In this document: positions 2-16,483 of the stretch, one piece after another | Layout: every line of letters starts with the position of its first letter | Numbering within the stretch: position 1 is the first letter of the stretch | Source of the DNA: Syntrophales bacterium | GTDB taxonomy: Bacteria > Desulfobacterota > Syntrophia > Syntrophales > PHBD01 | DNA: 64,000 nucleotides | Direction of reading: 5' to 3' | Assembly: GCA_963668175.1 (NCBI GenBank) | Contig: OY764159.1 | Coordinates: 2,144,001 to 2,208,000, forward strand | Position numbers and translations under genes: made by a program | Notes under the pieces: model-generated | Database searches by the model: none | What the model saw: the letters and a program-made list of their open reading frames with translations, nothing else | Told to the model about the DNA's origin: nothing

Positions 2-892
2 GTTCGACATATCAAACAGGGCTATCTGAGCCAGTTTGATCGAAATGCGCCACAACCGACTCCGTTTGATGTTAAGTTCACCGATTCCGGCAAAACAGCC
101 ATCGTGACGGAAAACGGCAAGACATCCGTGTATAAGGCAGTTACGGGAAAGTCAAATACGACCTGGAAATATGTTCCGGTGGAGGGGGGCGGCATCGATG
201 CGGCGGTAGATGCCGGGATCTATACGGTCCAACGCGGCAATGTCCTTGGCGATATCGCAGCCAAATTTCATACCACCGTTCAACAAATCATGGAGGCGAA
301 TCCCGATATCAAGAATCCGGATTCGATCCGCCCCGGACAGCGAATCGTATTGCCGAAAAACGACCCCTCCGGCCCCGCCGACAACAAGAAGGACCCCGAT
401 CCCGACCGGCAGGGCGCGACAGACCGGGGAGGCGACAACGACCGGCAATCCCGGAACATCTCCCATGATGACGGATTTACAGTGATCGCCTCAAGCGGCG
501 GCCCGGATGTTAACGAAAACACAAGTGCTGCCGCTCCTGCCGCTGACGCGCCGGCCGGCTTTTCCGCCGATCCGTTGCGTCATGCGCTGGACGCGCTGGG
601 GGTGAAGCCCCGCGATGTGCAATTCACCCCGGCGGCGGACTACGGGAATATAAAACCGGACTCCTTCGATATGGTGGATAAGGGCACATCCGAAAAGATA
701 GGCTCTTGTTTGATGACTCCCGACGGCGGCGAGATGACCGCGGGCGACAGGAAGGTCGTGATGGACCGGATAAGCGGCAACGACATTCACCTGCAAACGT
801 ACGCCAAAAACGACGACGGAGAATATGAACTCGTTGGGACGACGCGAATCGGCGACAACGACGGGGTAACGGTGACAAGGCCGTTTGCATAA
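2..892 (+). CDS. LysM-containing protein with conserved C-terminal domain (putative effector 1); 5' end lies outside the window
   Basis: Frame is open from base 2 into ORF 104..892. LysM motif YTVQRGNVLGDIAAKFHTTVQQIMEANPDIKNPDSIRPGQRIVLP. C-terminal ~105 aa (572-892) is near-identical to those of 2594..3700 and 7897..9093. Confidence 0.85.
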   Translation, partial: VRHIKQGYLSQFDRNAPQPTPFDVKFTDSGKTAIVTENGKTSVYKAVTGKSNTTWKYVPVEGGGIDAAVDAGIYTVQRGNVLGDIAAKFHTTVQQIMEANPDIKNPDSIRPGQRIVLPKNDPSGPADNKKDPDPDRQGATDRGGDNDRQSRNISHDDGFTVIASSGGPDVNENTSAAAPAADAPAGFSADPLRHALDALGVKPRDVQFTPAADYGNIKPDSFDMVDKGTSEKIGSCLMTPDGGEMTAGDRKVVMDRISGNDIHLQTYAKNDDGEYELVGTTRIGDNDGVTVTRPFA

Positions 893-986
893 TATCGGCG
901 GGCCGACCAGCGCCGCGACGCGGCTGGGGGCGAAGCGGTCGCAACGGAAAGCAATGCCTGGGAAAGCGTCCCTGACAAGGGGACGG

Positions 987-1060
987 GTCCCCCGAATGGG
1001 GGAAGGTCCCCCGCATGGGGGAAAGTCCCCCGCATGGGGGAAAGTCCCCCGCATGGGGGA
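987..1060. repeat. Tandem array of four 19-bp palindromic units, GTCCCCCGCATGGGGGAAA
   Basis: Units start at 987, 1006, 1025 and 1044. Each forms a TCCCCC-N4-GGGGGA hairpin. Confidence 0.9.
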
Positions 1061-1113
1061 CGGTATCCTCAGAATTTCGTCAAAATTCCGACAACGGAGG
1101 TTAAAAGGTCAAT

Positions 1114-1815
1114 ATGGCGTCACATGATAACGATCCGGGAAGAAAGTACGGACGATCGAGGGAAGAAAGGGGCTGTGGATGCCGGGATGGCGGCGGCTCT
1201 CGTTCCGGCGGATGGCCTCGGTCGCAATTCGGGAAGACGATGCTGCGGGGCATGATCCTGGTCATCCTCCTCCTTTTCACACCGCAGGTCCTCATCGCCG
1301 GCGACATTGAGGATGGGTATGACGAAAACACGATCCGCCCGTCGGACATACCGGCCGACGCCCCCCGGTTTGAAGATTATCCGGCAAAGCTTTACACCGG
1401 GCGCAATGCGGCCCCGGACCTCAAAAGCCACCCGCAGTCGAGGCTGTATCGGACGCGGCTTAAAGAATGGTCGCGCGAGAAACCGAATTTCGCGGGGCAC
1501 TTCATCCTGGCCGCTTGGGGCTGTGGAACCGATTGCACACAGATAGCCATCATCGACGCGAAAACGGGGCGTATTTTTCATCCGCCCGGTGCAACTTACA
1601 ATGTCGCCGTTAACGTGCACGATGATCTGCTGCCAACTTGTGAGCATATTAGAGACAGCTGCGGATCCATTTTGCATCGTCCGGACAGCAGGCTTTTGGT
1701 TATGATCGGTCGGCCTGAAGATAGCGAAAGAGGAATCTGGTATTTTTTATGGGAAAAGAATCGCCTGGTTAAACTGCGTTTCATACCGAAACCCTACAAC
1801 TGGCATGATGATTAG
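1114..1815 (+). CDS. Secreted/periplasmic hypothetical protein (putative immunity protein, paralog A); alternative start at 1240
   Basis: Signal-peptide-like MLRGMILVILLLFTPQVLIA from 1240. PNFAGHFILAAWGCGTDC motif. Close paralog of 1856..2554. Confidence 0.8.
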   Translation: MASHDNDPGRKYGRSREERGCGCRDGGGSRSGGWPRSQFGKTMLRGMILVILLLFTPQVLIAGDIEDGYDENTIRPSDIPADAPRFEDYPAKLYTGRNAAPDLKSHPQSRLYRTRLKEWSREKPNFAGHFILAAWGCGTDCTQIAIIDAKTGRIFHPPGATYNVAVNVHDDLLPTCEHIRDSCGSILHRPDSRLLVMIGRPEDSERGIWYFLWEKNRLVKLRFIPKPYNWHDD

Positions 1816-1855
1816 GGCAAATTCACCAAGCACACGCTGATCATGGAGGAATGTT

Positions 1856-2554
1856 ATGGTATCGCATTATAAGAATCCGGGAATCAAGTGCGGACGATCA
1901 AGGAAAGAAAGGGGCTGTGAGTGCCCGGGTGGCGGCTCTCGTTCCGGCGGATGGCCTCGGTCGCAATTCGGGAAGACGATGCTGCGGATCACGATCCTGG
2001 TCATGCTCCTCCTTTTCACGCCGCAGGTCCTCATGGCCGACGACATTGCGGATGGGTATGACGAAAACACGATCCGCCCGTCGGACATACCGGCCGACGC
2101 CCCGCGGTTTGAAGATTATCCGGCAAAGCTTTATACCGGGCGCAATGCGGTGCCCGATCTCAAAAGCCACCCGAGGTCGAGGATGTATCGGACGCGGCTC
2201 AAAGAATGGTCGCGCGAGAAACCGAATTTCGCCGGGCGCTTCATCTTGGCCACTTGGGGCTGTGGAACCGATTGCACACAGATAGCCATCATCGACGCGA
2301 AAACGGGGCGCATTTTTCATCCGCCCGGTGCAACTTCCAATAGTGCCGTTAATGTGCACGATGCTCTGTTTCAACCCGGCAAGAGTATCTGGTACGGCTC
2401 CGGCGCTATCTGGTATCGGCTGGACAGCAGGCTTTTGGTTTTGATCGGCGGGCCTGAAGATAGCGAAAGAGGAATCTGGTATTTTTTATGGGAGAAGGAT
2501 CGCCTGGTTAAGTTGCGTTTCATACCGAAACCCTTCCACTGGAAAAATCCTTAA
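1856..2554 (+). CDS. Secreted/periplasmic hypothetical protein (putative immunity protein, paralog B); alternative start at 1979
   Basis: GGAGG RBS before 1856. Signal-peptide-like MLRITILVMLLLFTPQVLMA. Directly upstream of transglycosylase gene 2594..3700. Confidence 0.8.
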   Translation: MVSHYKNPGIKCGRSRKERGCECPGGGSRSGGWPRSQFGKTMLRITILVMLLLFTPQVLMADDIADGYDENTIRPSDIPADAPRFEDYPAKLYTGRNAVPDLKSHPRSRMYRTRLKEWSREKPNFAGRFILATWGCGTDCTQIAIIDAKTGRIFHPPGATSNSAVNVHDALFQPGKSIWYGSGAIWYRLDSRLLVLIGGPEDSERGIWYFLWEKDRLVKLRFIPKPFHWKNP

Positions 2555-2593
2555 CCCAAATTAACTGGACAATGTTAATCATGGAGGAATGTT

Positions 2594-3700
2594 ATGGCTT
2601 CGCATTACAATGATCCGGGAATCAAATACGGACACTCAAGGGAAAAAGGGGCTGTCGACGCCGATGTCGCGGAGAAAGTCAAACAGAAAATCGTCACCCA
2701 GGCCAGAGCCGCGCAGCGTCAGGGCGTCCCCATCACGCAAGACGATATCGCCAGGTTAGTGGCCTATGCTGATCTGGAATCAGGGTTCAATCCCGACGCG
2801 GCCAATAAGGACGAATCCCCATCCGGTGTGTTTCAAATTGCGGATGAGACCGCTAAAGACTTCTATAGTCGATTAAACGGTAAATCTTTGATCAACGGTT
2901 ACCAAGTTAAGGGCAATTACGAAGACTACAAGCGATTCGATCCCGATTCGAACATCGCCGTAGGTATCGGTGTCTACCTCGACAAGAAAAGGAAGGCGAA
3001 GTCCGACGATGTCAATAAAATATATAAACGTTGGAATCCAGGAGCCACACCGGCGGAGCAAAAGGCGCTACGGAAACTGTATGAAAAATACAAAAGCATG
3101 AAACTTTCCCTCGATGATTCCGGGAGCGACGCCGACAAAGTCGCCGAGGCGGCGGAGCGGGATTCCGGGCGGACAGCCCCGGCCGGGCAACCGGACGATA
3201 CGTATTCAACCGAAGACAGGAAGAGAAAAGACCTCGCTGCGGGAGACGACGCCGAAGCTGAGACGGCGCGAAGAGGCGACGATTCGGGCGAACGAGAGGC
3301 CGACGATTCCACGAACAATCAGGACGGCGCTTTCAAGGCTGCCGCGAACGGTTCCTCCCTCGGCATACCCGAAGCGCCATGGCGGCACGCGCTGGATGTG
3401 CTGGGCGTGAAGTTCGGCGATGTGCAATTAACCCCGGCGGAGGCGGACGAAGAGAACGAGACACCGGACTCTTTCGACATCAGAGATAACGACACAACGG
3501 AAAAAATCGGCTCTTATGCGGGAACACCCACCGGCTGCGAAATGACCGTGGGCGACAGGAAGGTCGTGATGGACCGGATAAGCGGCAACGACATTCATCT
3601 GCAAACATATGCGAAAAACGACGATGGAGATTTTGAACTCGTTGGGACGACAAGAATCGGCGACAACGACGGGGTCACGGTAAGAAGGACGTTTGTATAA
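2594..3700 (+). CDS. Lytic transglycosylase (SLT-like) domain + acidic linker + conserved C-terminal domain (putative effector 2)
   Basis: GGAGG RBS. LESGFNPDAAN (catalytic Glu), SGVFQI and FDPDSNIAVG motifs. No signal peptide. Shared C-terminal domain at 3377-3700. Confidence 0.85.
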   Translation: MASHYNDPGIKYGHSREKGAVDADVAEKVKQKIVTQARAAQRQGVPITQDDIARLVAYADLESGFNPDAANKDESPSGVFQIADETAKDFYSRLNGKSLINGYQVKGNYEDYKRFDPDSNIAVGIGVYLDKKRKAKSDDVNKIYKRWNPGATPAEQKALRKLYEKYKSMKLSLDDSGSDADKVAEAAERDSGRTAPAGQPDDTYSTEDRKRKDLAAGDDAEAETARRGDDSGEREADDSTNNQDGAFKAAANGSSLGIPEAPWRHALDVLGVKFGDVQLTPAEADEENETPDSFDIRDNDTTEKIGSYAGTPTGCEMTVGDRKVVMDRISGNDIHLQTYAKNDDGDFELVGTTRIGDNDGVTVRRTFV

Positions 3701-3797
3701 TATCGGCTGGCCGGTAACCGCCGCGAAGCAGGCAGGCGAAAAAGGGGGACCCGTGAAATCCGAAGGCCCGGACGGGTAGGGCGGGAAGGGAGGGCAG

Positions 3798-4007
3798 TTG
3801 GGCAAAACGCTGATAGGGAAGGATGAGATCAAGGCCTACACCCGCCGCTCGTGGCAGACGATCCAGGCCTGGATCGACACGGAGAACTTCCCGGCGCGGA
3901 AGATCGGGGGCATCTGGGAATCGAACAAGGACCTCGTGGACGAATGGCGCCGCAACAACATCCTCAAACGGCCGCTGGTGGGGAATTATCCAGATATCAT
4001 CAGTTGA
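3798..4007 (+). CDS. Small helix-turn-helix DNA-binding protein (AlpA/excisionase-like)
   Basis: LIGKDEIKAYTRRSWQTIQAWI...FPARKIGGIWES pattern typical of mobile-element HTH proteins. GGAGG precedes a TTG start. Confidence 0.65.
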   Translation: MGKTLIGKDEIKAYTRRSWQTIQAWIDTENFPARKIGGIWESNKDLVDEWRRNNILKRPLVGNYPDIIS

Positions 4008-4608
4008 TAACGCGTAAGCTGCTTTATTTGTCTAGTGTTGCGGGTAATCGGAAGCCTTTGAAAGCTCTTTGACCTTCCATAAGAAGTACAATTCATCTTG
4101 ACTGATCGTCTCTTTCTTGTCGCTCTTCGCCATGGTTTCTTCAATGACTTCCGCACCTATTTTAGTCGCTCCAAATGCAGCAGCGCCTGCCAGCGGCGTT
4201 GTAAAGATTCCAGTTAGAAAACCAACAGATATAGCACCCGTCCATCCTGCAATTTTGCGCACAACTCCCTTAAAAAGGGATTTATCAGCTTTGCTAATTT
4301 TAGCGCTCAGAGATGCTAAGCGTGGTTGAAGAATGTCCGCATAAACTGCTTGAGCATCTCTCTCTGTAAATGAGTCACCCGCTATCTTGTATTCTTCTAT
4401 CGCTTTGGTCAATGCTGCTCTGAACAAAATGAATGCTTCTTGTTCGCTATTTCGAAGTTTTATAAGGCTTTGTGCGTCAACAGATTCAACGAAAGGAAGA
4501 AGGCAGGTAAGATATTTTTGCATAAGCATTGTATGCCGCCTAGCTATCGGATCACCCGTTAAGTTCTTTATGAAATTAATTTCGAGATCACTATCAGTGG
4601 AGTTGCCC

Positions 4609-5457
4609 CTATTTCACCGGACACTGTTCTAACTTATTTTGATGTCTCCTATACTCCCTGGGCGACATCATTTTCAATCCCTTGTGCGGATGGTTTTCAT
4701 TGTAGTCTACGAACCATCCGGGCAGTTGCTTCATGACCGTTTCGGCATCAGTCAGGATATTCAGATGAACATAATCCCTCTTGAAGGTCTTGACAAAGGA
4801 TTCGGCCATGCCGTTCGATTCCGGGCTGTAGAACGGGGTCGTGCAAACCTCAAGCCCCATCATCTGCCCAAAGCTTTTCGTTTCCCTGGCGGTGTACGCA
4901 GGACCATTATCGCTCAGCCACTGGATTCTGTGAGGCAGCCGATTGATCATACCGAAACGGGCCTCAATGGCTTCCGCCATCAAGTCCCTGACCATGTCGC
5001 CGGATACGCCCCCTGTCGTGGCTACATAACTCATGATTTCCCTGTCGCAACAATCCATGCTGAACGCTACCCGGAGACGGTCCCCATTCCAGCAGGCAAT
5101 CTCAAACGCATCGGAACACCAACGAAGATCGCTCCGTCTCGTCGTGACCTTACCCTCGTGAAGCCTTGCCGGCCTACCCGTATGCCGCTGAAGAAGCAGA
5201 TTGTGCATCTTCATGAGACGATAAATCCGTTTGGGGTTAACTCCCGGATGCCCCTGACGTTCCAGAAACCTGTTGATTCTTGCCGTTACTCTCCGATAGC
5301 CGTAACTGGGACGATTATCAATAACCTGCCTGATCAGAAGAAGATATCTGCCATCGTCGCCTCTCCTGTAATGGCGGCTTCTCGAATCGGCTTCCTTCCC
5401 TTGCCTTTCGTACTGCCGGGAACGGGAAACGTCCAGCGTATCGACAACCGTCTTCAT
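4609..5457 (-). CDS. IS3-family transposase OrfB (DDE/rve core), probably fused to OrfA by -1 frameshift
   Basis: YGYRRV, WCSD, WLSDNG and SPESNGMAESFVKTFKRDY motifs. The -1 frame is open from the A8 run to the ATG. Confidence 0.93.
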   Translation of the reverse strand: MKTVVDTLDVSRSRQYERQGKEADSRSRHYRRGDDGRYLLLIRQVIDNRPSYGYRRVTARINRFLERQGHPGVNPKRIYRLMKMHNLLLQRHTGRPARLHEGKVTTRRSDLRWCSDAFEIACWNGDRLRVAFSMDCCDREIMSYVATTGGVSGDMVRDLMAEAIEARFGMINRLPHRIQWLSDNGPAYTARETKSFGQMMGLEVCTTPFYSPESNGMAESFVKTFKRDYVHLNILTDAETVMKQLPGWFVDYNENHPHKGLKMMSPREYRRHQNKLEQCPVK

Positions 5458-5831
5458 CGGGAATCGTCCTCCGGCAACAACGGCAACCGCGAGATCAGTT
5501 TTTTTTCACGGGCAATCCGGACAGCCTCTCTTAATATCTCCACCTCCATTGTCTTTTTGCCCAGAAGACGCTCCAACTCCCGGATCTGCTTCTTCAGTTC
5601 TCTGGCTTCCGATGCAGGAACGACGCCTTCATCTGCACCAACCGCCGACAGAGCCCCTTCTTCGGCAAGCCTGCGCCAGTGGAACAGTTGGTTCGGATGG
5701 ATGTCATACTTCCGGGCTACAGCCGAGATGCTCATTCCCGGCTGCTCCGCCTCCCGCACCGTCGACTTCTTCTCGGCAGCCGACCAGCGACGTCGCCTCT
5801 GTACACCGACGATCACTTCTACAGGAACCAT
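5454..5831 (-). CDS. IS3-family transposase OrfA (HTH)
   Basis: RRRWSAAEKKSTV...SISAVARKYDIHPNQLFHWRR, then leucine-zipper-like ELKKQIRELERLLGKKTMEVEIL. Confidence 0.92.
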   Translation of the reverse strand: MVPVEVIVGVQRRRRWSAAEKKSTVREAEQPGMSISAVARKYDIHPNQLFHWRRLAEEGALSAVGADEGVVPASEARELKKQIRELERLLGKKTMEVEILREAVRIAREKKLISRLPLLPEDDSR

Positions 5832-7186
5832 AAACACCTTCTTTCTGGTTGTAGTAATATCTCTATATCTATTCCTACAACTTATTTCCAGATTCAAAGT
5901 GTCCGGTTCAATTGGGGGCTACTTCAATCAGACAAGAATGATGTCTTCAGCAAATCAGCAACACCTAATTCAAAGGCGATATTGTGAATGAGCGGTGTGA
6001 AGGGTATGTTATGCGCCTTAAGCTTTTTAGCTTGATCTGTGGTTAGCTTAATTATTCCACATTTTTTGACCTGCTCTACAAGCCTTGGAGCTTTACTATA
6101 GATTTCGTCCTGGATAAGATAAGTATGACACCACAAACCATGAGGTAATATTGAATCTGGCCCAGAACTGATTAGTGTCATTTCGTCATTCTTATAAATG
6201 AGTGAGTATGCTACTTCCTTCAAAAACCTTCTACGTAACGCATCTGACAACACGTTATATCTTGGGTTCTTATCCTGCGATAGAGCATCTATACATAGAC
6301 AATGCGGACAAACATTGCCAAAAGAAACCATCTGGACTATGTCAGATTCAATTAAAGGCAGTAATTCACAAAATACAATCAAATCATCCAAGAATTTATA
6401 GCGGAAAAAGGCCTCTAAATTCGCTGGTTTTCTATCAGCATACGCAAGTAAGTCTGTAAAATAATTCTTGATGAAAACCTTATCACTGTATAAAGCGGCA
6501 AACTGTGTCAACTCTCTAATCTTTTCAATTCGGCATGAAGGACTGGAACATGGATATGAACTTCCACCCAAAGATGGCGCTGCGGCGTGAGAGAATATCG
6601 ACGGACTGGCATTTATATTGGTATAATGTGTTATATCGGTGGATTGTTGGCAAACATCAATAATATGGCTTGCCTTCAGTTTGCGAATATACTTTATGAT
6701 TGGTTTGCCATTTCTTATCAACCCGGCATTTTCAAACAAAGCCTTAAGAGGGTGTTCCATATTCTTTTATACCTATAAATTATTATCGTGACAGCCTCGT
6801 ATATGCCCTTTATTTACCAGCTGTTAACGGAACTATGAGGCAGTTTATTGTGTGTGTCAAGAAAAAATGGACGAAATTGCTAGAACTATCATTAGATATT
6901 TCGTCGCTTTAACATATTGAGTCCACGATAATTCCGGTACGCCTACATATTTTCCCCCTTTTCCCTCGGTCAGACACCGGCGGACTTGACGCTGGCGGCT
7001 ATCCGTCAAGCGCAATAAAAGGTCATTCTTCCGCTATACGCCCGAATCGGTAAATAATCATTATATAATACTATATTTATATTGCATTAGGCCGTTTATC
7101 GTTTATAATATCAGTATAATATCCTGACATGGCCGGATGGCGAGGGGGAGTTCGTAACCGTTTGATATTTTTATGCGAGGTGCATC

Positions 7187-7891
7187 ATGAATGAAAAGAG
7201 CCGTGAAGTAAAAAGAAGCGCCGCGACGATGAGCCGGAAGGACGATCGACCGGGCATCCGGTGCGCGACGATTCGATCCGCCTGCCTTCTTTTTATGGCC
7301 CTGTTCGTTTTGGCCTGGAGTCCGGGAGCATTCGCAGCGGAACCCGGCAGCCCCGCATTGTCCCAAGATAAGGAAGGTCAAGCCGCCGGGGAGAACGCAG
7401 GCGGGGAATTCAAAAAATATCGTGCCGTATTCAGCGAGCTGGTTTGCGGAGATGTCAAGGCATTGGCGGTAAGAATACGATCAGAGGAAGACAGCTTTCC
7501 TTTGATTGAAGCTGTTGACCAGAGAATATACTTTATCAACAAGACCGGCCGGATCAAGCTTGTCAAGGATTCATGGGATAACAAGTTGAATCGAAACAGG
7601 ATTAATTCTTCGGGATATATTTATCCCGCAGTATCCTGGGATTGTACGAGAGATAAGAGAGGAAAACCTTACATCATTATTTTCTCATGGTCCGGCGGTA
7701 ATTATCGGGGAGCCGAATGGACCGAAATCTATGATCTGGATGGCAGATTGGTGGCGAGCAACTATTCAGAAAAGATAAAGAATTTTCGACGCATCAATGA
7801 TTTGTTTGACAAGAAAATAGAAAAATTAGGAATTCGTTACGATTGGAGATCTGCAAAAAAAATCAGATTTAAAGAACAAGACGGGAGGTAA
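7187..7891 (+). CDS. Secreted hypothetical protein (putative immunity protein for 7897..9093)
   Basis: Hydrophobic signal CLLFMALFVLAWSPGAFA. Stop lies 5 nt before the next ATG, with that gene's GGAGG RBS at its 3' end. Confidence 0.78.
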   Translation: MNEKSREVKRSAATMSRKDDRPGIRCATIRSACLLFMALFVLAWSPGAFAAEPGSPALSQDKEGQAAGENAGGEFKKYRAVFSELVCGDVKALAVRIRSEEDSFPLIEAVDQRIYFINKTGRIKLVKDSWDNKLNRNRINSSGYIYPAVSWDCTRDKRGKPYIIIFSWSGGNYRGAEWTEIYDLDGRLVASNYSEKIKNFRRINDLFDKKIEKLGIRYDWRSAKKIRFKEQDGR

Positions 7892-7896
7892 GCTGG

Positions 7897-9093
7897 ATGC
7901 CGAAAGAAACAAATTACAATATCTTAATCGATAAAACGCCTGGCCGTTCTGCCGGGAACAGTCGAAAAGCAGGGGCTGCTCCATACGAAGTGAAGGTGAA
8001 AGCCGTGGAAGCGATCAGGAAGTATGCAGGTCTTTATGGATTCAATGAACATCAGACCAGCGAAGTCTTGAAAATCGTGGAACACGAATCTGGATTTAAT
8101 CCAGATGCTGCGAATCCAGACACAACTGCGTCCGGACTAGGACAGATGATGAATGACACGTTTGAGCAGTATGGGCCGCGTGGTGCGAATATTTTCGATC
8201 TGGATGCCAACGCAGAGGCAACAGTCAGATACTATCAACATTGCCTGAACAAAGCCGCAGAGAAAGGACTGACCGGAGAGAAGTTGGATACAGGTGCGTA
8301 TGCGTGTTATCATGACGGCCCGTGGAATTTTAAAGCCGGTAAGGATAAAAAAGGTGCGGATATTTATAAAAAGGTCATTAAAAAATTATCCGGTAAGCCC
8401 AAGGTTAGCAGTAACGAACGCTCCTCCAGCAACTCCGACAAGGTAGCCGAGGCGACGGAACGGGATTCCGAGCGGACAGCCGCGGCTGAGCAGCCGGACG
8501 ATGCTTATTCAACCGAAGACAGGAAGAGAAAAGACCTCGCGGGAGACGACGCCGAATCTGAAACGGCGTGGAGAGGCGGAAATTCAGATCGTCGAAGCAT
8601 ACCTAATTCATGGATAGCGGATGCCGGTAACGTGCTTTCAGATGTGTCCGGAAATGCTCTTCAAAGCGCCCTCCGCGAGGCAAGAAAGCCAACGGATGTC
8701 GAATCGGCCGCGAACACGATGACGCTTCGTGAGGCGCCGACCGATTTGCTTGCCGAACCGGGTTCTCCATTGCAGCACGTAATGGATGCGCTGGGGGTGT
8801 CGTCCGGCGATGTGCATTTAACCCCTGCGGAAGCGGACGATGAGAACGAGACACCGGACTCCTTCGATATTGTGGATAAGGGCACATCCGAAAAGATAGG
8901 CTCTTGTTTGACGACACCCGGCGGCTGCGAGATGACCGCAGGCGACCGGAAGGTCGTGATGGACCGGATAAGCGGTAATGACATTCACCTGCAAACGTAT
9001 GCCAAAAACGACGATGGAGATTTTGAGCTCGTTGGCACAACGCGAATCGGCGACAACGACGGGGTAACGGCAAGAAGGCCGTTTGCGGGTTAG
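7897..9093 (+). CDS. Lytic transglycosylase (SLT-like) domain + linker + conserved C-terminal domain (putative effector 3)
   Basis: HESGFNPDAAN, SGLGQM and AYACYHDGP SLT motifs. No signal peptide. Linker shared with 2594..3700. Shared C-terminal domain at 8767-9093. Confidence 0.87.
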   Translation: MPKETNYNILIDKTPGRSAGNSRKAGAAPYEVKVKAVEAIRKYAGLYGFNEHQTSEVLKIVEHESGFNPDAANPDTTASGLGQMMNDTFEQYGPRGANIFDLDANAEATVRYYQHCLNKAAEKGLTGEKLDTGAYACYHDGPWNFKAGKDKKGADIYKKVIKKLSGKPKVSSNERSSSNSDKVAEATERDSERTAAAEQPDDAYSTEDRKRKDLAGDDAESETAWRGGNSDRRSIPNSWIADAGNVLSDVSGNALQSALREARKPTDVESAANTMTLREAPTDLLAEPGSPLQHVMDALGVSSGDVHLTPAEADDENETPDSFDIVDKGTSEKIGSCLTTPGGCEMTAGDRKVVMDRISGNDIHLQTYAKNDDGDFELVGTTRIGDNDGVTARRPFAG

Positions 9094-9167: not shown

Positions 9168-9536
9168 ATGCGAGATGAATTTTCTTTCTCTGAAGTCGAA
9201 CGGATTGTTCCGGCTATTAAAAGAAGCACCGCCCAGATGTGGGTCAAGGCTGGGATTATTGTGCCGAAAGAGAATCATGTGGGCCGAGGGGTGTCGCGGG
9301 TTTACTCTTTCGAAAATCTCATTGAGCTTTTTGCAGCTGCGGAATTATCCGGATGTTGGGGGATGGCCACGAAGGGCATAGAATCGCATCTGAAGCGTCC
9401 AAGGTTTAAGAGTGCCGTCAAAGAGAGAGGCGTCTATTGCCGTGTTCGCTATGGTAACGATGCAGACAGCGGCATTACATCGGCTGTGATAATATTCATT
9501 GGAGAAATTGCGGCGGAGATAGAAAGGCGGCTGTAA
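9168..9536 (+). CDS. MerR-type HTH DNA-binding protein
   Basis: FSFSEVERI...RSTAQMWVKAGIIVP...GRGVSRVYSFENL is a MerR-HTH pattern. Confidence 0.7.
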   Translation: MRDEFSFSEVERIVPAIKRSTAQMWVKAGIIVPKENHVGRGVSRVYSFENLIELFAAAELSGCWGMATKGIESHLKRPRFKSAVKERGVYCRVRYGNDADSGITSAVIIFIGEIAAEIERRL

Positions 9537-9667: not shown

Positions 9668-10243
9668 ATGACATCCGCTTCCGATCAAACCGTTAATACT
9701 GCGCCGGAGTCGCTCACAAGCGATCATTATACAATCTTTCATTTAATCCTCCAGCTCGCTTTTGCCGCGCTGTTATTCTTTTTGAACGAACTCGATAGAA
9801 GGCTGAATCTCTATCTGCTGCTGGTTCCGCTCCTCCTTGTCCCGGCATTAGTAGTGGTGATTATCTGGCTGACCAGCGTCATAACAAACAGCATTAGAAA
9901 GAGGTGGCGTCGTCTCGCTTCCGCCGTCATTGCACCGGTGATCATTTTTTGCCTCATGGCCTCGCTTGCTCACTGGCGGATCGATGCGGATTGGGTACGC
10001 TTTCAGGCAAACCATCGACACTATGAAAAATCGGTACAGTTCCTCAAGGGGCCGCACCCCAGACATGTTACGTGGGATTGGGGCCATACCGGAGGCGCGG
10101 CGGTCGTCTGCATTGATTACGAACTCCACTACGACGAATCCGATTTAACAAAGCTCCGAGATGGAGAGAGGAAAGGGGGCGGTATCATCAGAGTCCGCGA
10201 TTTCGGAAACCACTTCTACCTCGTTACCGCCGTCTATCAATAG
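9668..10243 (+). CDS. Hypothetical membrane protein (about 3 TM plus soluble C-terminal domain)
   Basis: Three hydrophobic segments in the N-terminal half. 191-aa ORF. Confidence 0.7.
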   Translation: MTSASDQTVNTAPESLTSDHYTIFHLILQLAFAALLFFLNELDRRLNLYLLLVPLLLVPALVVVIIWLTSVITNSIRKRWRRLASAVIAPVIIFCLMASLAHWRIDADWVRFQANHRHYEKSVQFLKGPHPRHVTWDWGHTGGAAVVCIDYELHYDESDLTKLRDGERKGGGIIRVRDFGNHFYLVTAVYQ

Positions 10244-10325: not shown

Positions 10326-11237
10326 TTATTTATGAAATAATTCAAATCTCCGCAAATGAAGATTGAGACTTCTCGCAAATCCATCGAGACCTGGAAACAA
10401 GGTCGACGGATTGACATTCATTTCATGAAGGTCATATAACGCTTCTTTATGAATATCTCTTGATATGACTATTTTCAATATCGCAACATCTCGGAAATCA
10501 AACTCTTCTAATCGGGCCGTCTCAATTTGCGTCGCATCGGCGCTTGATAATTCATCAAAAGTTATCTCAAATGCAGCGCATAGATTCTTTTCGAAGGACG
10601 ACTGTCTATTGCATGGGAATAAAAAAATACCCTGTTGCATCCAGAGACGAGTATGTTGGAGGAAAGGGTCGATTAACAAGACAGAGTTTTCACTCTCTTC
10701 TTTTGAATTCAGGCATTCGTTTGCCCTGTCTTTGTGCGCTTTGACTATTTCTCTGTATGGATGAGAGTATGGCGACATGCCGCCAATTTCTACCGAATCT
10801 ATAAGCATGTTTATGTTAATGGCCCAAACGGCCGAATCGTCCGTTGAATTTTCCATAGCAAAGAACGCTGCTATAAAGAAGGAATCCGTAAAATCCAAGA
10901 GCCTCGTACTCCCGCCGTAGTGCTGCAAGAAAGATAGCCATTCGATGCTGTTATTTAATTCCGGAAGTTTATGCTCGAAGAGATGAGCTCGACGTTGAAA
11001 TTCGCTAAGCATATACAATTCTGTATTTTGATAGTGGTATTTAGTGCATTGGTATTGCTCGGCGTCTCTCTCGAATCTCGTTGATAAAGGCCACTCTTTA
11101 TCTCCCTGGCCACGAAATGCCCAAATAGGAGCCCCGGCTTTCATGCACGAGAGAAGCTTTCCTCGGTCATTCCAGGAGTCAATTGCTATTTCACAAAATT
11201 TATGTGAATCCGTCTTCAAATGATTTCCCTTAGCCAA
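10326..11237 (-). CDS. FRG domain-containing protein
   Basis: WAFRGQ, LQHYGGSTRLLDFT and RLWMQQGIF motifs, ending in STLFPGLDGFAR. AT-rich. Confidence 0.9.
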   Translation of the reverse strand: MAKGNHLKTDSHKFCEIAIDSWNDRGKLLSCMKAGAPIWAFRGQGDKEWPLSTRFERDAEQYQCTKYHYQNTELYMLSEFQRRAHLFEHKLPELNNSIEWLSFLQHYGGSTRLLDFTDSFFIAAFFAMENSTDDSAVWAININMLIDSVEIGGMSPYSHPYREIVKAHKDRANECLNSKEESENSVLLIDPFLQHTRLWMQQGIFLFPCNRQSSFEKNLCAAFEITFDELSSADATQIETARLEEFDFRDVAILKIVISRDIHKEALYDLHEMNVNPSTLFPGLDGFARSLNLHLRRFELFHK

Positions 11238-13741: not shown

Positions 13742-14692
13742 TTATTTTCCGAACTTCCTTCTTGCGCGCCTCCTGCAGGGGGCAACCGCAACACCTGCCA
13801 AGCCGAAACCAAGAAGCAGCATGGTACCCGGTTCAGGAACGGGTGTCGAACTCTGCATGTTCCCAATGAATCCATGGACATTTTGTTCGGCATCTTGGTA
13901 ATATCCCACGATCTGGCCGTTGTCGTTGATGCCGGTAAGAAAGGTGCCGCCCACACCATCCGGGTTGTCAATGATCGTGCAATCCGAATCACTGCAAAGG
14001 AACCCGTGCGTGATTCCGTCTTGATAGAAATACCCGACGATTTGCATTGAATTGTTGATTCCCGTTGCGTACGTTTCGACCGCTCCCGGATATTGGACTG
14101 CCCGGACCACTGTTTTAGTCGGCCAGGAATAGATTCTGCTTATCTCCAGCAAACCGTTGTAAACCGCAATGTCGCCTTTGTTATTAATTGCATAAGCGAG
14201 TACATTGTCTTGTATGTGCCATATTTTTGCCTCGGTGGTATTGTAAAGGAAAGCATACTGGCTCAATATTCCCGTGTAATATCCGACAATGTCGCCGTTG
14301 TCGTTGATTCCGGAAGGCCTCATCGAAAAATTACCATAGTAGATCCATCTCAACTCCGTTCCGTCAGTGCTGCGAACGAAACCGTCCGTGTGGTCATTTT
14401 TTATTCCTGTACCGACAATCTGACCGCTATTATTGATGCCCGTCAAAAAGGTGTTGCCATCGCCGACCTTAACAGTCGTGTAAGTCCCTCCACTGTCTCG
14501 CACGAAACCAGAGTACCCTTCGCCCGGGACTGCAAAACTGCCGACGACCTCGCCGGAATTATTGATCCCATTTGCGTAGGTAAGAGTAGCGCCCGGAACA
14601 TCGATAGCGGTAAACGTATAGTCGGCATGAGCTACATTAAATCCTATGACTAAAAAAAGCGTTGGGAGTAATGCTGCAAAAGCCTTTTTCAT
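13742..14692 (-). CDS. PEP-CTERM surface protein with HAF-like extracellular repeats
   Basis: Signal peptide. Repeated GINNSG(E/Q)(V/I)VG motifs. C-terminal VPEPGTMLLLGFGLAGVAV plus basic tail. Confidence 0.9.
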   Translation of the reverse strand: MKKAFAALLPTLFLVIGFNVAHADYTFTAIDVPGATLTYANGINNSGEVVGSFAVPGEGYSGFVRDSGGTYTTVKVGDGNTFLTGINNSGQIVGTGIKNDHTDGFVRSTDGTELRWIYYGNFSMRPSGINDNGDIVGYYTGILSQYAFLYNTTEAKIWHIQDNVLAYAINNKGDIAVYNGLLEISRIYSWPTKTVVRAVQYPGAVETYATGINNSMQIVGYFYQDGITHGFLCSDSDCTIIDNPDGVGGTFLTGINDNGQIVGYYQDAEQNVHGFIGNMQSSTPVPEPGTMLLLGFGLAGVAVAPCRRRARRKFGK

Positions 14693-14726
14693 TTCAAATC
14701 TCCTAAGGCAAATGGTTATTGTGAAT

Positions 14727-14861
14727 TTACTTCCTGAACTTCCTCCTCGCGCGCCCCCGTGCAGGGGGCAACCGCAACGCCTGCTAAGCCGAGGCCAAGA
14801 ATGAGCGTAGTGGTGGGTTCGGGGACAGAAGAGGGATCGACAAAAGTCCGGATTTTCTCAT
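14727..14861 (-). pseudogene. Internally deleted PEP-CTERM gene remnant
   Basis: RBS and MRKSGLLSIPLL start are joined out of frame to VPEPTTTLILGLGLAGVAVA. The ARRKFRK-stop tail is frameshifted again. Confidence 0.75.
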
Positions 14862-14893
14862 ATCCCCCTCTTATTTTATTTTCCCGAATCGTC

Positions 14894-15087
14894 GCAAATT
14901 GCATACCAAGATGATAAGCAGCTGTATTCATGAATTAATTCCCATGGCCTCAGGTTTCCGATCTTCATTAAATGTAAAGAAATGTTACACAAATATTCGC
15001 TGAGAGTACATGGTATAGGTATAGTATAATATTATCCACAGGTTGAATGGCTGGAATCTTCTGGGTAGATTGTCGGAATTATTTACA
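14894..15087 (-). promoter_or_regulatory. Sigma-54 promoter with two TGT-N11-ACA enhancer boxes
   Basis: TGGTATGCAATTTGC (GG-N10-GC, 14894-14908 on -). TGTAAAGAAATGTTACA at 14973-14989. TGTCGGAATTATTTACA at 15071-15087. Confidence 0.7.
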
Positions 15088-15808
15088 CCAGGCCGTGGGG
15101 CCACTGGGATATCGAAGCGTATGCGCAGTTATCAGTGACCGTCTTTCAGACGGTTATCGATAATCTTCGAATGAACACGAATGAGAAGATAGTAGGTGTA
15201 AGCGACGGGCAAGGCAGAGCCTGTCCTGACGGGGGCTGCAATGTCGCGTATCGGCCGGGGCGATGAATGCGGTTGTCGTCGTCGCCCGCCTTCCGGCGGC
15301 GTTAAACGGGATTTCGGCGGTGCGGGAGGTCTTGTCGGAAGCGGATTGACGGGAATAACCCGCCCCGGGTTCCGGCTGATGTCTGAAATGCGATCTGTCA
15401 ATATCTGCGCGGTTCCGTGCCGAAGTCCCCATGTCCGGGAAGGGGCGCTTTCCCGATAGTTTCATTATTACGGATAGATGGCCTGATAGTCGTCTGGCCG
15501 GCTGTTTTAAGCCGGCCGTCTGCACAAAATCGATGCGGAAAAGCAGTACGAAAGTCAGCCTGACAATAGTATTCTCTGGATTATTATCGGCATCGATTTA
15601 TCAGCGATGTTCAAAAAAAATGTCCGGAAGTCTTTACATAATAGGTAAATAATGATATATACCATAGTTATATATTGACTGATAAATGTACCTGATCTCC
15701 GCCCGCTACAACCGACCTGAGTAACATACGGGATCGGGACAGATGTGATAAGCGGTATCTGTTTAAAATTGTTCGATTAATGATAAATTGCCCGTTTCAT
15801 GCTCAGCC

Positions 15809-15823
15809 TGGCATGAATAAAGC
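15809..15823 (+). promoter_or_regulatory. Candidate sigma-54 promoter of PEP-CTERM gene 15863
   Basis: TGGCATGAATAAAGC (GG-N10-GC). TGT-N12-ACA box at 15621-15638. Confidence 0.55.
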
Positions 15824-15862
15824 GGCCTTTCGCAGTCAATCATTAGCTGATGAGGAGGAATA

Positions 15863-16483
15863 ATGAAAAAGATCTTACTGACACTCTGCATGACATTCAT
15901 TCTTTTTACGGCTCCGGTCCAGGCGGCCAATGTCACCCTGATCGACCAGGGTGCGACATGGAACTATTCGGTTCTTAGCACGGACCTGTGGTCCAATTGG
16001 TCGGCGGCCGGATACGCATCGTTCAACTGGGCCGATGCCGCGTGGTCGACCGGTAACGCCGCGTTCGGCAACGCCTCATTTACGTTGCCCTATCAGACTT
16101 ATTGGGGGGCAAATACCGATCTGGCGCTTCAGAAAGTTTTCACCATCAACGGTACGCTTTCCGGGCCTTTAACGCTTAACGTCGCCGCCGATAACGGGTT
16201 CATCGTCTTCATCAACGGTCACGAGGTAGCCAAACGGAATGCGGAAGGAATTACCAATTACTGGCAATATACGTTGCAGCTTTCTTCACTCGATTTCATC
16301 GCTCCGGGCAGCAATACCATTCAGGTGCTGGCGGAAGATCACGGCATCATGACGTTCTTTGACTTGAAATTGACGGGAAACGTCGACCCTGTCCTTAACC
16401 CTGTTCCAGAGCCCGTTACGATTCTGCTGCTCGGCCTCGGACTGACAGGTGTCGCTGTTGCAAGGAGAAAATGCAACCGATAG
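15863..16483 (+). CDS. PEP-CTERM surface protein
   Basis: GAGGAGG RBS. Signal peptide. C-terminal VPEPVTILLLGLGLTGVAVARRK. Confidence 0.9.
   Translation: MKKILLTLCMTFILFTAPVQAANVTLIDQGATWNYSVLSTDLWSNWSAAGYASFNWADAAWSTGNAAFGNASFTLPYQTYWGANTDLALQKVFTINGTLSGPLTLNVAADNGFIVFINGHEVAKRNAEGITNYWQYTLQLSSLDFIAPGSNTIQVLAEDHGIMTFFDLKLTGNVDPVLNPVPEPVTILLLGLGLTGVAVARRKCNR

Follow-up and report, generated by a model that had tools for sequence, protein, structure and literature searches.

A strictly C-terminal domain shared by putative toxin-immunity genes of a Syntrophales bacterium, and its possible link to a Francisella-like type VI secretion system

In the Xanthomonas type IV secretion system (T4SS), as described in the parts of PMC8740702 used here, an effector (X-Tfe) joins a variable N-terminal catalytic domain to a conserved C-terminal domain of about 110-120 amino acids (aa), XVIPCD, and the gene of its cognate immunity protein (X-Tfi) lies upstream; the XVIPCD fold consists of two helices and three strands, with a glutamine-rich tail. 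Among type VI secretion system (T6SS) effectors, the MIX, FIX, RIX and PIX domains are non-structural N-terminal domains followed by a C-terminal toxin, found at orphan loci with adjacent immunity genes, and this order is the one described for cargo that loads on the spike (PMC12135965, also drawn on in part). The window considered here, a 64,000-nt stretch (G000:2144001-2208000) of the complete genome of a Syntrophales bacterium (G000; one contig, 4.57 Mb, 100% complete), begins with a cluster of three genes, A, B, and C, whose products end in a shared C-terminal domain (CTD); six more, D-I, form a second cluster elsewhere in the genome. Like the XVIPCD system, these genes combine an apparently toxic N-terminus, a conserved C-terminal domain, and an upstream partner; like MIX, FIX, RIX and PIX, the CTD is common to unrelated toxins and occurs at orphan loci with adjacent immunity genes.

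The reading of these genes as toxin-immunity pairs is well supported, and the CTD proteins are very probably toxic. We infer that the CTD is an export tag. A T6SS is the probable route, and if the rest holds, the CTD would in all likelihood be a loading tag; the combined proposal, that the CTD effectors are T6SS cargo with a C-terminal loading tag, reversing the MIX/RIX/PIX polarity, is one that we favour with some reserve. In it, the effectors would be cytoplasmic products lacking a signal peptide, each built from an exchangeable toxic module at the N-terminus (in most cases one that cleaves peptidoglycan), a low-complexity linker, and the CTD, which would act as a constant handle for loading unrelated toxins onto a Francisella-like T6SS (at the spike, PAAR, or tube). 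The T6SS would fire the loaded toxins into a neighbour's periplasm, while the upstream gene product, periplasmic or membrane-bound, would block toxin arriving from sibling cells. New toxin-immunity cassettes would enter the genome from elsewhere and be joined by recombination to the CTD already there.

The original prediction, made from the letters of the window, was that three of its proteins share an unrecognised C-terminal domain behind differing N-terminal parts. The open reading frames (ORFs) are where it placed them, and the CTD copies, about 108 aa long, are 76-81% identical in amino acids (reference: the first copy) and 70-84% identical in DNA to the copy at 3377 over 300 nt, with tblastn E-values of 1e-45 or better, so that chance is excluded as an explanation of the shared domain. 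The array continues outside the window: with the second cluster (G000:2797894-2821205) the genome holds nine copies, seven of them intact. Gene E carries an in-frame stop, and the CTD of gene I, the ninth copy, is interrupted by a repeated element. This element (G000:2820831-2821027) belongs to a set of about 20 related genome copies of 100-190 bp, and is possibly a miniature mobile element.

Pairwise dN/dS values for the CTD range from 0.17 to 0.64 (median 0.36; 0.23 for the C-terminal half) and lie below 1 in 28 of 28 pairs; to judge from these codon comparisons, the domain is under purifying selection. Its GC content (0.55-0.58) is close to that of the genome (0.558), while the three toxin modules (0.46-0.49) and two of the three partners measured (0.40-0.47) fall 7-16 points lower.

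The analysed family comprised 39 sequences, 10 ORFs from this genome and 29 proteins from databases (P0001, P0002, and P0017-P0020 were excluded as own or near-identical). The CTD is present in 37, and in all 37 no more than 3 residues separate it from the C-terminus. Clustering of the N-terminal parts gave 10 groups, two of which are fragments, leaving eight classes (lytic transglycosylases, NlpC/P60, lysozyme-like, hydrophobic, and unassigned): the B/C-type SLT, the H/I type, NlpC/P60, the E type, G, P0004, A, and F. In a CTD tree, near-identical CTDs are joined to different N-termini, as expected from shuffling. The family is very narrowly distributed. A search of 1.84 billion representative sequences gave 16 matches at E<=0.001 and 14 at 1e-10 (two weak ones, P0015 and P0016, were set aside as short repeated stretches in very long proteins), and 31 proteins among 7998 scored candidates contain the domain. 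Among 339 genomes of the class it occurs in one, this genome; two short metagenome contigs also carry it, one with the same partner-CTD-partner layout. The CTD is confined to a single lineage, which is known from one complete genome and metagenome fragments.

The SLT domains of effectors B and C are recognised with E-values of 2.4e-7 and 2.5e-9 and are 31% identical over 86 aa, so that with the LysM of effector A (Table 1) the divergence of the N-terminal parts is as originally described. The first gene, seen in the window as a LysM-containing region, is complete in the genome; it starts before the window, and a domain of about 175 aa precedes the LysM. Ntox44 was considered for this domain and rejected, the match being weak and below cut-off; its structural model is poor (predicted local distance difference test, pLDDT, 42.6; best Z 3.8). 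The H/I-type modules share Glu-Ser and Gly-x-Phe/Tyr-Gln motifs with the B/C-type SLT, and relatives of the E-type module match phage endolysin families. The G and P0004 modules are two Gly/Ala-rich hydrophobic types. No PDB sequence match was found for the E- or F-type modules.

The CTD itself was recognised no better by profile than by eye: it has no match in Pfam (nothing at E<=0.1), NCBIfam, or PHROGs, none among PDB sequences or in the ESM Atlas, and none in phage or plasmid records. Its peptide patterns found nothing beyond kin in GTDB and IMG/VR, in scans that detect close relatives only. A model built from eight sequences (pLDDT 80) predicts one helix and an eight-stranded antiparallel meander. 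Fold searches, viral folds included, returned generic beta-meander matches (best Z 6.8, root-mean-square deviation 3.0, 87 residues aligned); such generic matches to a predicted structure do not make the CTD a new fold. The idea that it is a VgrG-like spike segment was not supported (profile comparison probability 0.3).

The upstream neighbour of each of the nine CTD genes has a hydrophobic N-terminus, and the three window CTD proteins have no hydrophobic stretch (here and below, by a hydropathy scan, not a signal-peptide predictor). This is in keeping with the proposal that the complete effectors lack signal peptides and that the genes before them, 1856..2554 and 7187..7891, each with a hydrophobic stretch near the start, have them; the list of upstream genes was right as to the 1856 gene, and had overlooked its paralog at 1114..1815 (Table 1). 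The partners are of several types: membrane proteins (A and D), WG-repeat proteins (H and I), a TPR protein (G), and exported proteins without a family (B, C, E, and F). Related toxins are paired with related partners (A with D, H with I).

Partner genes are also found as tandem duplicates preceded by remnants of toxin 5′ ends, as at 1114 and 1856, with similar traces at A, D, and F. Segment 1113-1184, before the duplicate immunity gene, matches 2593-2663 and is a remnant of the 5′ end of gene B; because such a remnant opens both the 1114 and the 1856 ORF, translation probably begins further in, at 1240 and 1979. The partner copy immediately before D is split across two frames.

These arrangements bear on the possibility that there is no conflict system here, and that the genes are prophage relics or housekeeping wall enzymes with a shared wall-binding domain. 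The SLT domains do resemble phage tail lysins, and phage-type genes and an insertion sequence lie nearby. However, the CTD matches no phage or cell-wall-binding domain, having turned up neither in PHROGs or phage records nor in searches of IMG/VR by pattern and of viral structures by fold, and it is joined to eight N-terminal classes; some of its carriers have a LysM in addition, and some have a hydrophobic module where others have an enzyme. Housekeeping enzymes would need a signal peptide to reach their own wall, and the individual exported partner of each enzyme, the duplicated partners, and the toxin remnants also speak against such an account, which we regard as the least likely of all those considered.

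Of the partners, that of B was followed furthest. Its family has at least 273 relatives and no Pfam family, and it has no sequence relative in the PDB. In GTDB it is found at 154 loci, of which the best 80 were used; at 19 of these 80 the homologue lies directly behind a small SLT-like ORF, mostly in Paraburkholderia and kin, so that the 19 are not independent. Two inspected close relatives sit among SMI1/KNR4 and similar small genes. In this class the family occurs in three of 338 other genomes; in one of the same family as the source genome (G001), the homologue lies between a lambda-type lysozyme gene (E=5e-17 to PDB 1am7) and vgrG.

The 19 loci (L058, L060, L090, L095, and 15 more, at about 4500-5400) encode a 128-aa SLT-like protein without a signal peptide; together with the adjoining gene of the B-partner family, this is likely to be an unannotated effector-immunity pair. 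At L090 a Tai4 gene lies 3′ of the pair.

For the complex of the B SLT domain with the protein starting at 1979, structure prediction gave a score of 0.81, against 0.00 for the best of three controls. Among solved complexes, 116 of 157 reach this mark, and among mismatched pairs 2 of 215, a calibration that holds only roughly for alignments supplied from outside it, as here. The runs concur in at least 81% of contacts, with a partner pLDDT of at least 86, and the predicted interface takes in the catalytic Glu and the FQ motif, the latter touched by the CGTDC loop of the partner. Close cousins can pass the score too, so it does not settle partner specificity between B and C, and likeness to solved lysozyme-inhibitor complexes may contribute to it. 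The prediction supports binding of the partner at the catalytic groove of the B transglycosylase. With relatives beside lytic enzymes, this modelled complex also favours the immunity-like role first suggested for the upstream genes. Whatever the route, the 1856 protein and its relatives are candidates for a new family of proteins that inhibit lytic transglycosylases.

The genome has a single T6SS, a Francisella-like cluster at G000:156457-183562 encoding TssB, C, E, F, G, K, L, and M, a ClpV-like protein, IglE, IglI, a short VgrG, and PAAR. TssB, TssE, TssK, and IglI exceed NCBIfam cut-offs, and TssC, TssF, TssG, DotU, IglE, and PAAR those of Pfam. The VgrG (173 aa; G000:175490) matches the Francisella model below cut-off; only its position identifies the putative tube gene (G000:171319), of which a second copy (G000:2234418) lies about 80 kb from the window cluster. 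Searches with the DUF4150 and DUF4280 PAAR families were empty, and the PAAR gene (G000:156457) was later found by ORF inspection. The cluster also holds a separate, PdpA-like hub gene (G000:173833) and an inserted AMP-binding-like gene. At its end (G000:181655-183562), and again at 2300124-2302136, are paralogs of 635-670 aa without family match, 24% identical, which are possible effectors without a CTD.

The comparative evidence for a T6SS comes mainly from the E-type toxin domain, found in three of 338 other class genomes. In all three, the hcp and vgrG genes of a canonical T6SS enclose the toxin together with a homologue of the partner encoded before it (in the two compared, 30-35% identity and E<1e-24; Table 1); arrays of immunity genes in hcp islands are known from PMC9796082, as far as the part of that paper drawn on here goes. 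These E-type homologues end in an Arg-Trp tail of about 25 aa in place of the CTD. In one genome (G219) the tail is common to the E-type toxin and an unrelated lysozyme-like toxin behind a WG-repeat gene, the same pairing as in H and I here. The order partner-toxin-tail thus occurs inside T6SS islands of the class, and the Arg-Trp tail is, by its sequence, a candidate second C-terminal T6SS tag. A possible likeness between the CTD end and this tail spans very few residues, and a profile of the tail has no match in this genome.

Several observations weigh against a T6SS route. The two CTD clusters have no T6SS genes near them, the T6SS cluster being some 2 and 2.6 Mb away, and none of the CTD genes of this genome adjoins hcp, vgrG, PAAR, or adaptor genes; orphan effector loci are common in T6SS, so that non-adjacency does not exclude membership. 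An IglI-type T6SS is found above cut-off in 13 of 339 class genomes, of which 12 have no CTD. The T6SS-linked homologues belong to canonical T6SS clusters and have no CTD, and toxin domains are common to different delivery systems, so that their surroundings in other genomes do not decide the route in this one. No T6SS link was found for the A N-terminal domain (0 of 44 genomes) or the F module (0 of 338), and the C partner gave one weak, T6SS-unlinked match in 44 genomes; a mixed SLT-CTD profile, used without a positive control, found nothing in 16 T6SS genomes. Of the best 80 B-partner-family loci, 61 have no SLT-like neighbour. At least two of the nine CTD genes are broken, no activity is established for the A, F, G, or P0004 module, and the genome also has a flagellar export system (FlhA).

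The last of these points leads to one alternative, that the effectors are real and the CTD serves as a signal, for export or for binding of a chaperone, in a flagellar, type IV pilus-linked, or unrecognised machine. FlhA is accompanied by a PilQ secretin, the only secretin of the genome, in a pilMNOPQ-like, type IV pilus-like operon; no type I secretion adaptor was found above cut-off. The lack of a CTD in the 12 genomes with the same T6SS type would fit such a machine, as would the lack of a match between the CTD and any known signal. Flagellar export substrates, however, carry N-terminal signals, toxins acting in the periplasm must be delivered across the target outer membrane, and the comparative links all point to T6SS; we consider a route of this kind rather improbable.

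Release without a secretion system is another possibility: the proteins could be bacteriocin-like toxins freed by lysis or in vesicles, with the CTD binding a receptor or import system of the target cell. The absence of signal peptides and of linked secretion genes suits this explanation, and a very narrow CTD distribution is what a receptor specific to close kin might produce; a phage-type repressor and a replication initiator also lie just upstream of the window cluster. Yet inspection of the genes flanking the two CTD clusters revealed none for lysis or phage structure, homologous toxin-immunity pairs occur in hcp-vgrG islands, and in colicin-type loci the immunity gene follows the toxin gene, the reverse of the order here. 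Bacteriocins seem to us an unlikely explanation, though not an outlandish one.

The original prediction took its logic from the Xanthomonas T4SS effectors, and as to architecture and gene order the likeness stands. The route does not: five T4SS families (PF02534, PF03135, PF03743, PF19044, and PF12696) are absent from the complete genome, with positive controls, so a type IV secretion link is unsupported, and the comparative evidence favours T6SS. Of the systems whose co-occurrence with the CTD was to be checked, a T6SS is present in the same genome, and VirB4, VirB10, VirD4, and phage sheath were not found in it. It might still be argued that the CTD is a functional analogue of XVIPCD and that the T4SS was lost from the strain or is too divergent to detect. 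The same domain and gene order as in X-Tfe/X-Tfi pairs (PMC8740702, in the parts used here) and the decay of some CTD copies could be read this way; on the other side are the five absent families, the seven intact copies with their signature of purifying selection, and the lack of any XVIPCD or plasmid match. The CTD moreover has no Gln-rich tail and no PF20410 match, belongs to a genome without VirD4 or VirB, and may differ from XVIPCD in fold, its model having one helix and eight strands. A genome search with PF20410 was empty, as was its control, and XVIPCD structures were not listed by the fold searches with the CTD (best Z 6.8). An XVIPCD analogue is accordingly given very little credence.

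The cargo proposal set out above is retained over these alternatives. Going further, the CTD could be a strictly C-terminal, lineage-specific delivery domain of a Francisella-like T6SS that serves to kill other bacteria, with C-terminal tags and upstream immunity genes more widespread in the class, which we put forward tentatively, at somewhat less than an even chance.

Table 1. Positions of the effector genes, their partners, and associated features. Coordinates are those of the window unless a genome or locus is given.
Feature	Position	Strand	Remarks
Three-transmembrane (TM) partner gene of effector A	G000:2142921-2143496		upstream of A
Effector A, 3′ part	2..892	+	full gene 456 aa, start G000:2143522, 478 nt before the window; by domain search, ~175-aa N-terminal domain, LysM, low-complexity linker, CTD
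LysM of effector A	221..355	+	Pfam PF01476, E=1.9e-14, residues 234-278
CTD copy A	569..889	+	
Duplicate of B immunity gene	1114..1815	+	probable start 1240; ~80% identical to 1856..2554
Exported partner of B, putative lytic transglycosylase inhibitor	1856..2554	+	probable start 1979; conserved WGCGTDC loop
Effector B, 368 aa	2594..3700	+	SLT-type lytic transglycosylase, catalytic Glu motif retained, acidic linker, CTD 3374-3697
Insertion sequence, 1.33 kb	4598..5926	-	six genome copies; outside the system
150-bp repeat	7043..7192		96% match at G000:2142550-2142699, upstream of effector A module
Exported partner of C, putative immunity protein	7187..7891	+	no family match; 5 nt before C start
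Effector C, 398 aa	7897..9093	+	second SLT-type transglycosylase, linker, CTD 8764-9090
Three-TM protein	9668..10243	+	size and layout as A partner
E-type island	G219:C9 (L117:7398-10846)		
E-type island	G207:C5 (L118:9631-11144)		
E-type island	G152:C1 (L119:9072-10483)		

Several other features surround the window cluster. The repeat before the C partner is likely to be a trace of duplication or recombination, and the three-TM gene 3′ of C, which matches the A partner in size and layout, is a possible orphan immunity gene. A phage-type helix-turn-helix (HTH) repressor and a replication initiator are encoded at G000:2140691-2142403, just 5′ of the window, and a MerR-like HTH protein at 9168-9536, 3′ of the cluster; to judge from these flanking genes, the cluster is part of a small island or of the remains of a phage. 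Gene A is followed (960-1060) by short tandem-like repeats, each about 20 nt long, with related copies at G000:2142705, 2080976, 2082462, and 2087796. The insertion sequence interrupts an AT-rich gene (4032-6760) unrelated to the system. Further 3′ are an FRG-domain gene (10326-11237) and several genes for PEP-CTERM-like exported proteins (13742-16483). Scans for promoters and terminators did no better than chance.

Known T6SS delivery domains are N-terminal or central, and a terminal tag with a type IV-like order would, if confirmed, add a second loading logic; effector discovery by N-terminal markers would then miss a polarity class. As a marker, the CTD would expose new toxins: four of the eight modules have no assigned activity. 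The Francisella-like T6SS subtype is known mainly from host infection, and would gain, in an environmental lineage, a set of effectors aimed at bacteria.

Set against the T6SS delivery domains already described, the CTD differs from MIX, FIX, RIX and PIX in that the order is reversed, with the shared domain C-terminal in 37 of 37 carriers; neither Pfam nor NCBIfam reported a match to these or to WHIX. The nearest in arrangement are WHIX effectors of subclass II, such as Awe1, with an N-terminal peptidoglycan toxin, an upstream immunity gene encoding a signal peptide, and the delivery domain behind the toxin (PMC12135965, in the part used here). In the same account WHIX is about 550 aa long, lies between two toxic domains, and caps the tail of a canonical VgrG, while the CTD has 108 aa and is strictly terminal, in a genome with a short Francisella-like VgrG. 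On the immunity side, the predicted insertion of the CGTDC loop of the B partner into the transglycosylase groove recalls the Ivy-type inhibitors of lysozymes and lytic transglycosylases, which have a CKPHDC motif (PMC3660660, in part); the likeness is one of motif only and no homology is claimed, the B partner having no sequence match to Ivy or to any solved structure. The literature covered (titles and abstract openings, with much subscription material outside) contained no description of the CTD, nor of any T6SS delivery domain that is strictly C-terminal. The hallmarks of polymorphic toxins are all the same present, namely a constant part with diverse modules, adjacent and duplicated or orphan immunity genes, and remnants, and the CTD family is real: a polymorphic toxin-immunity family that had not been annotated before and whose terminal domain is new.

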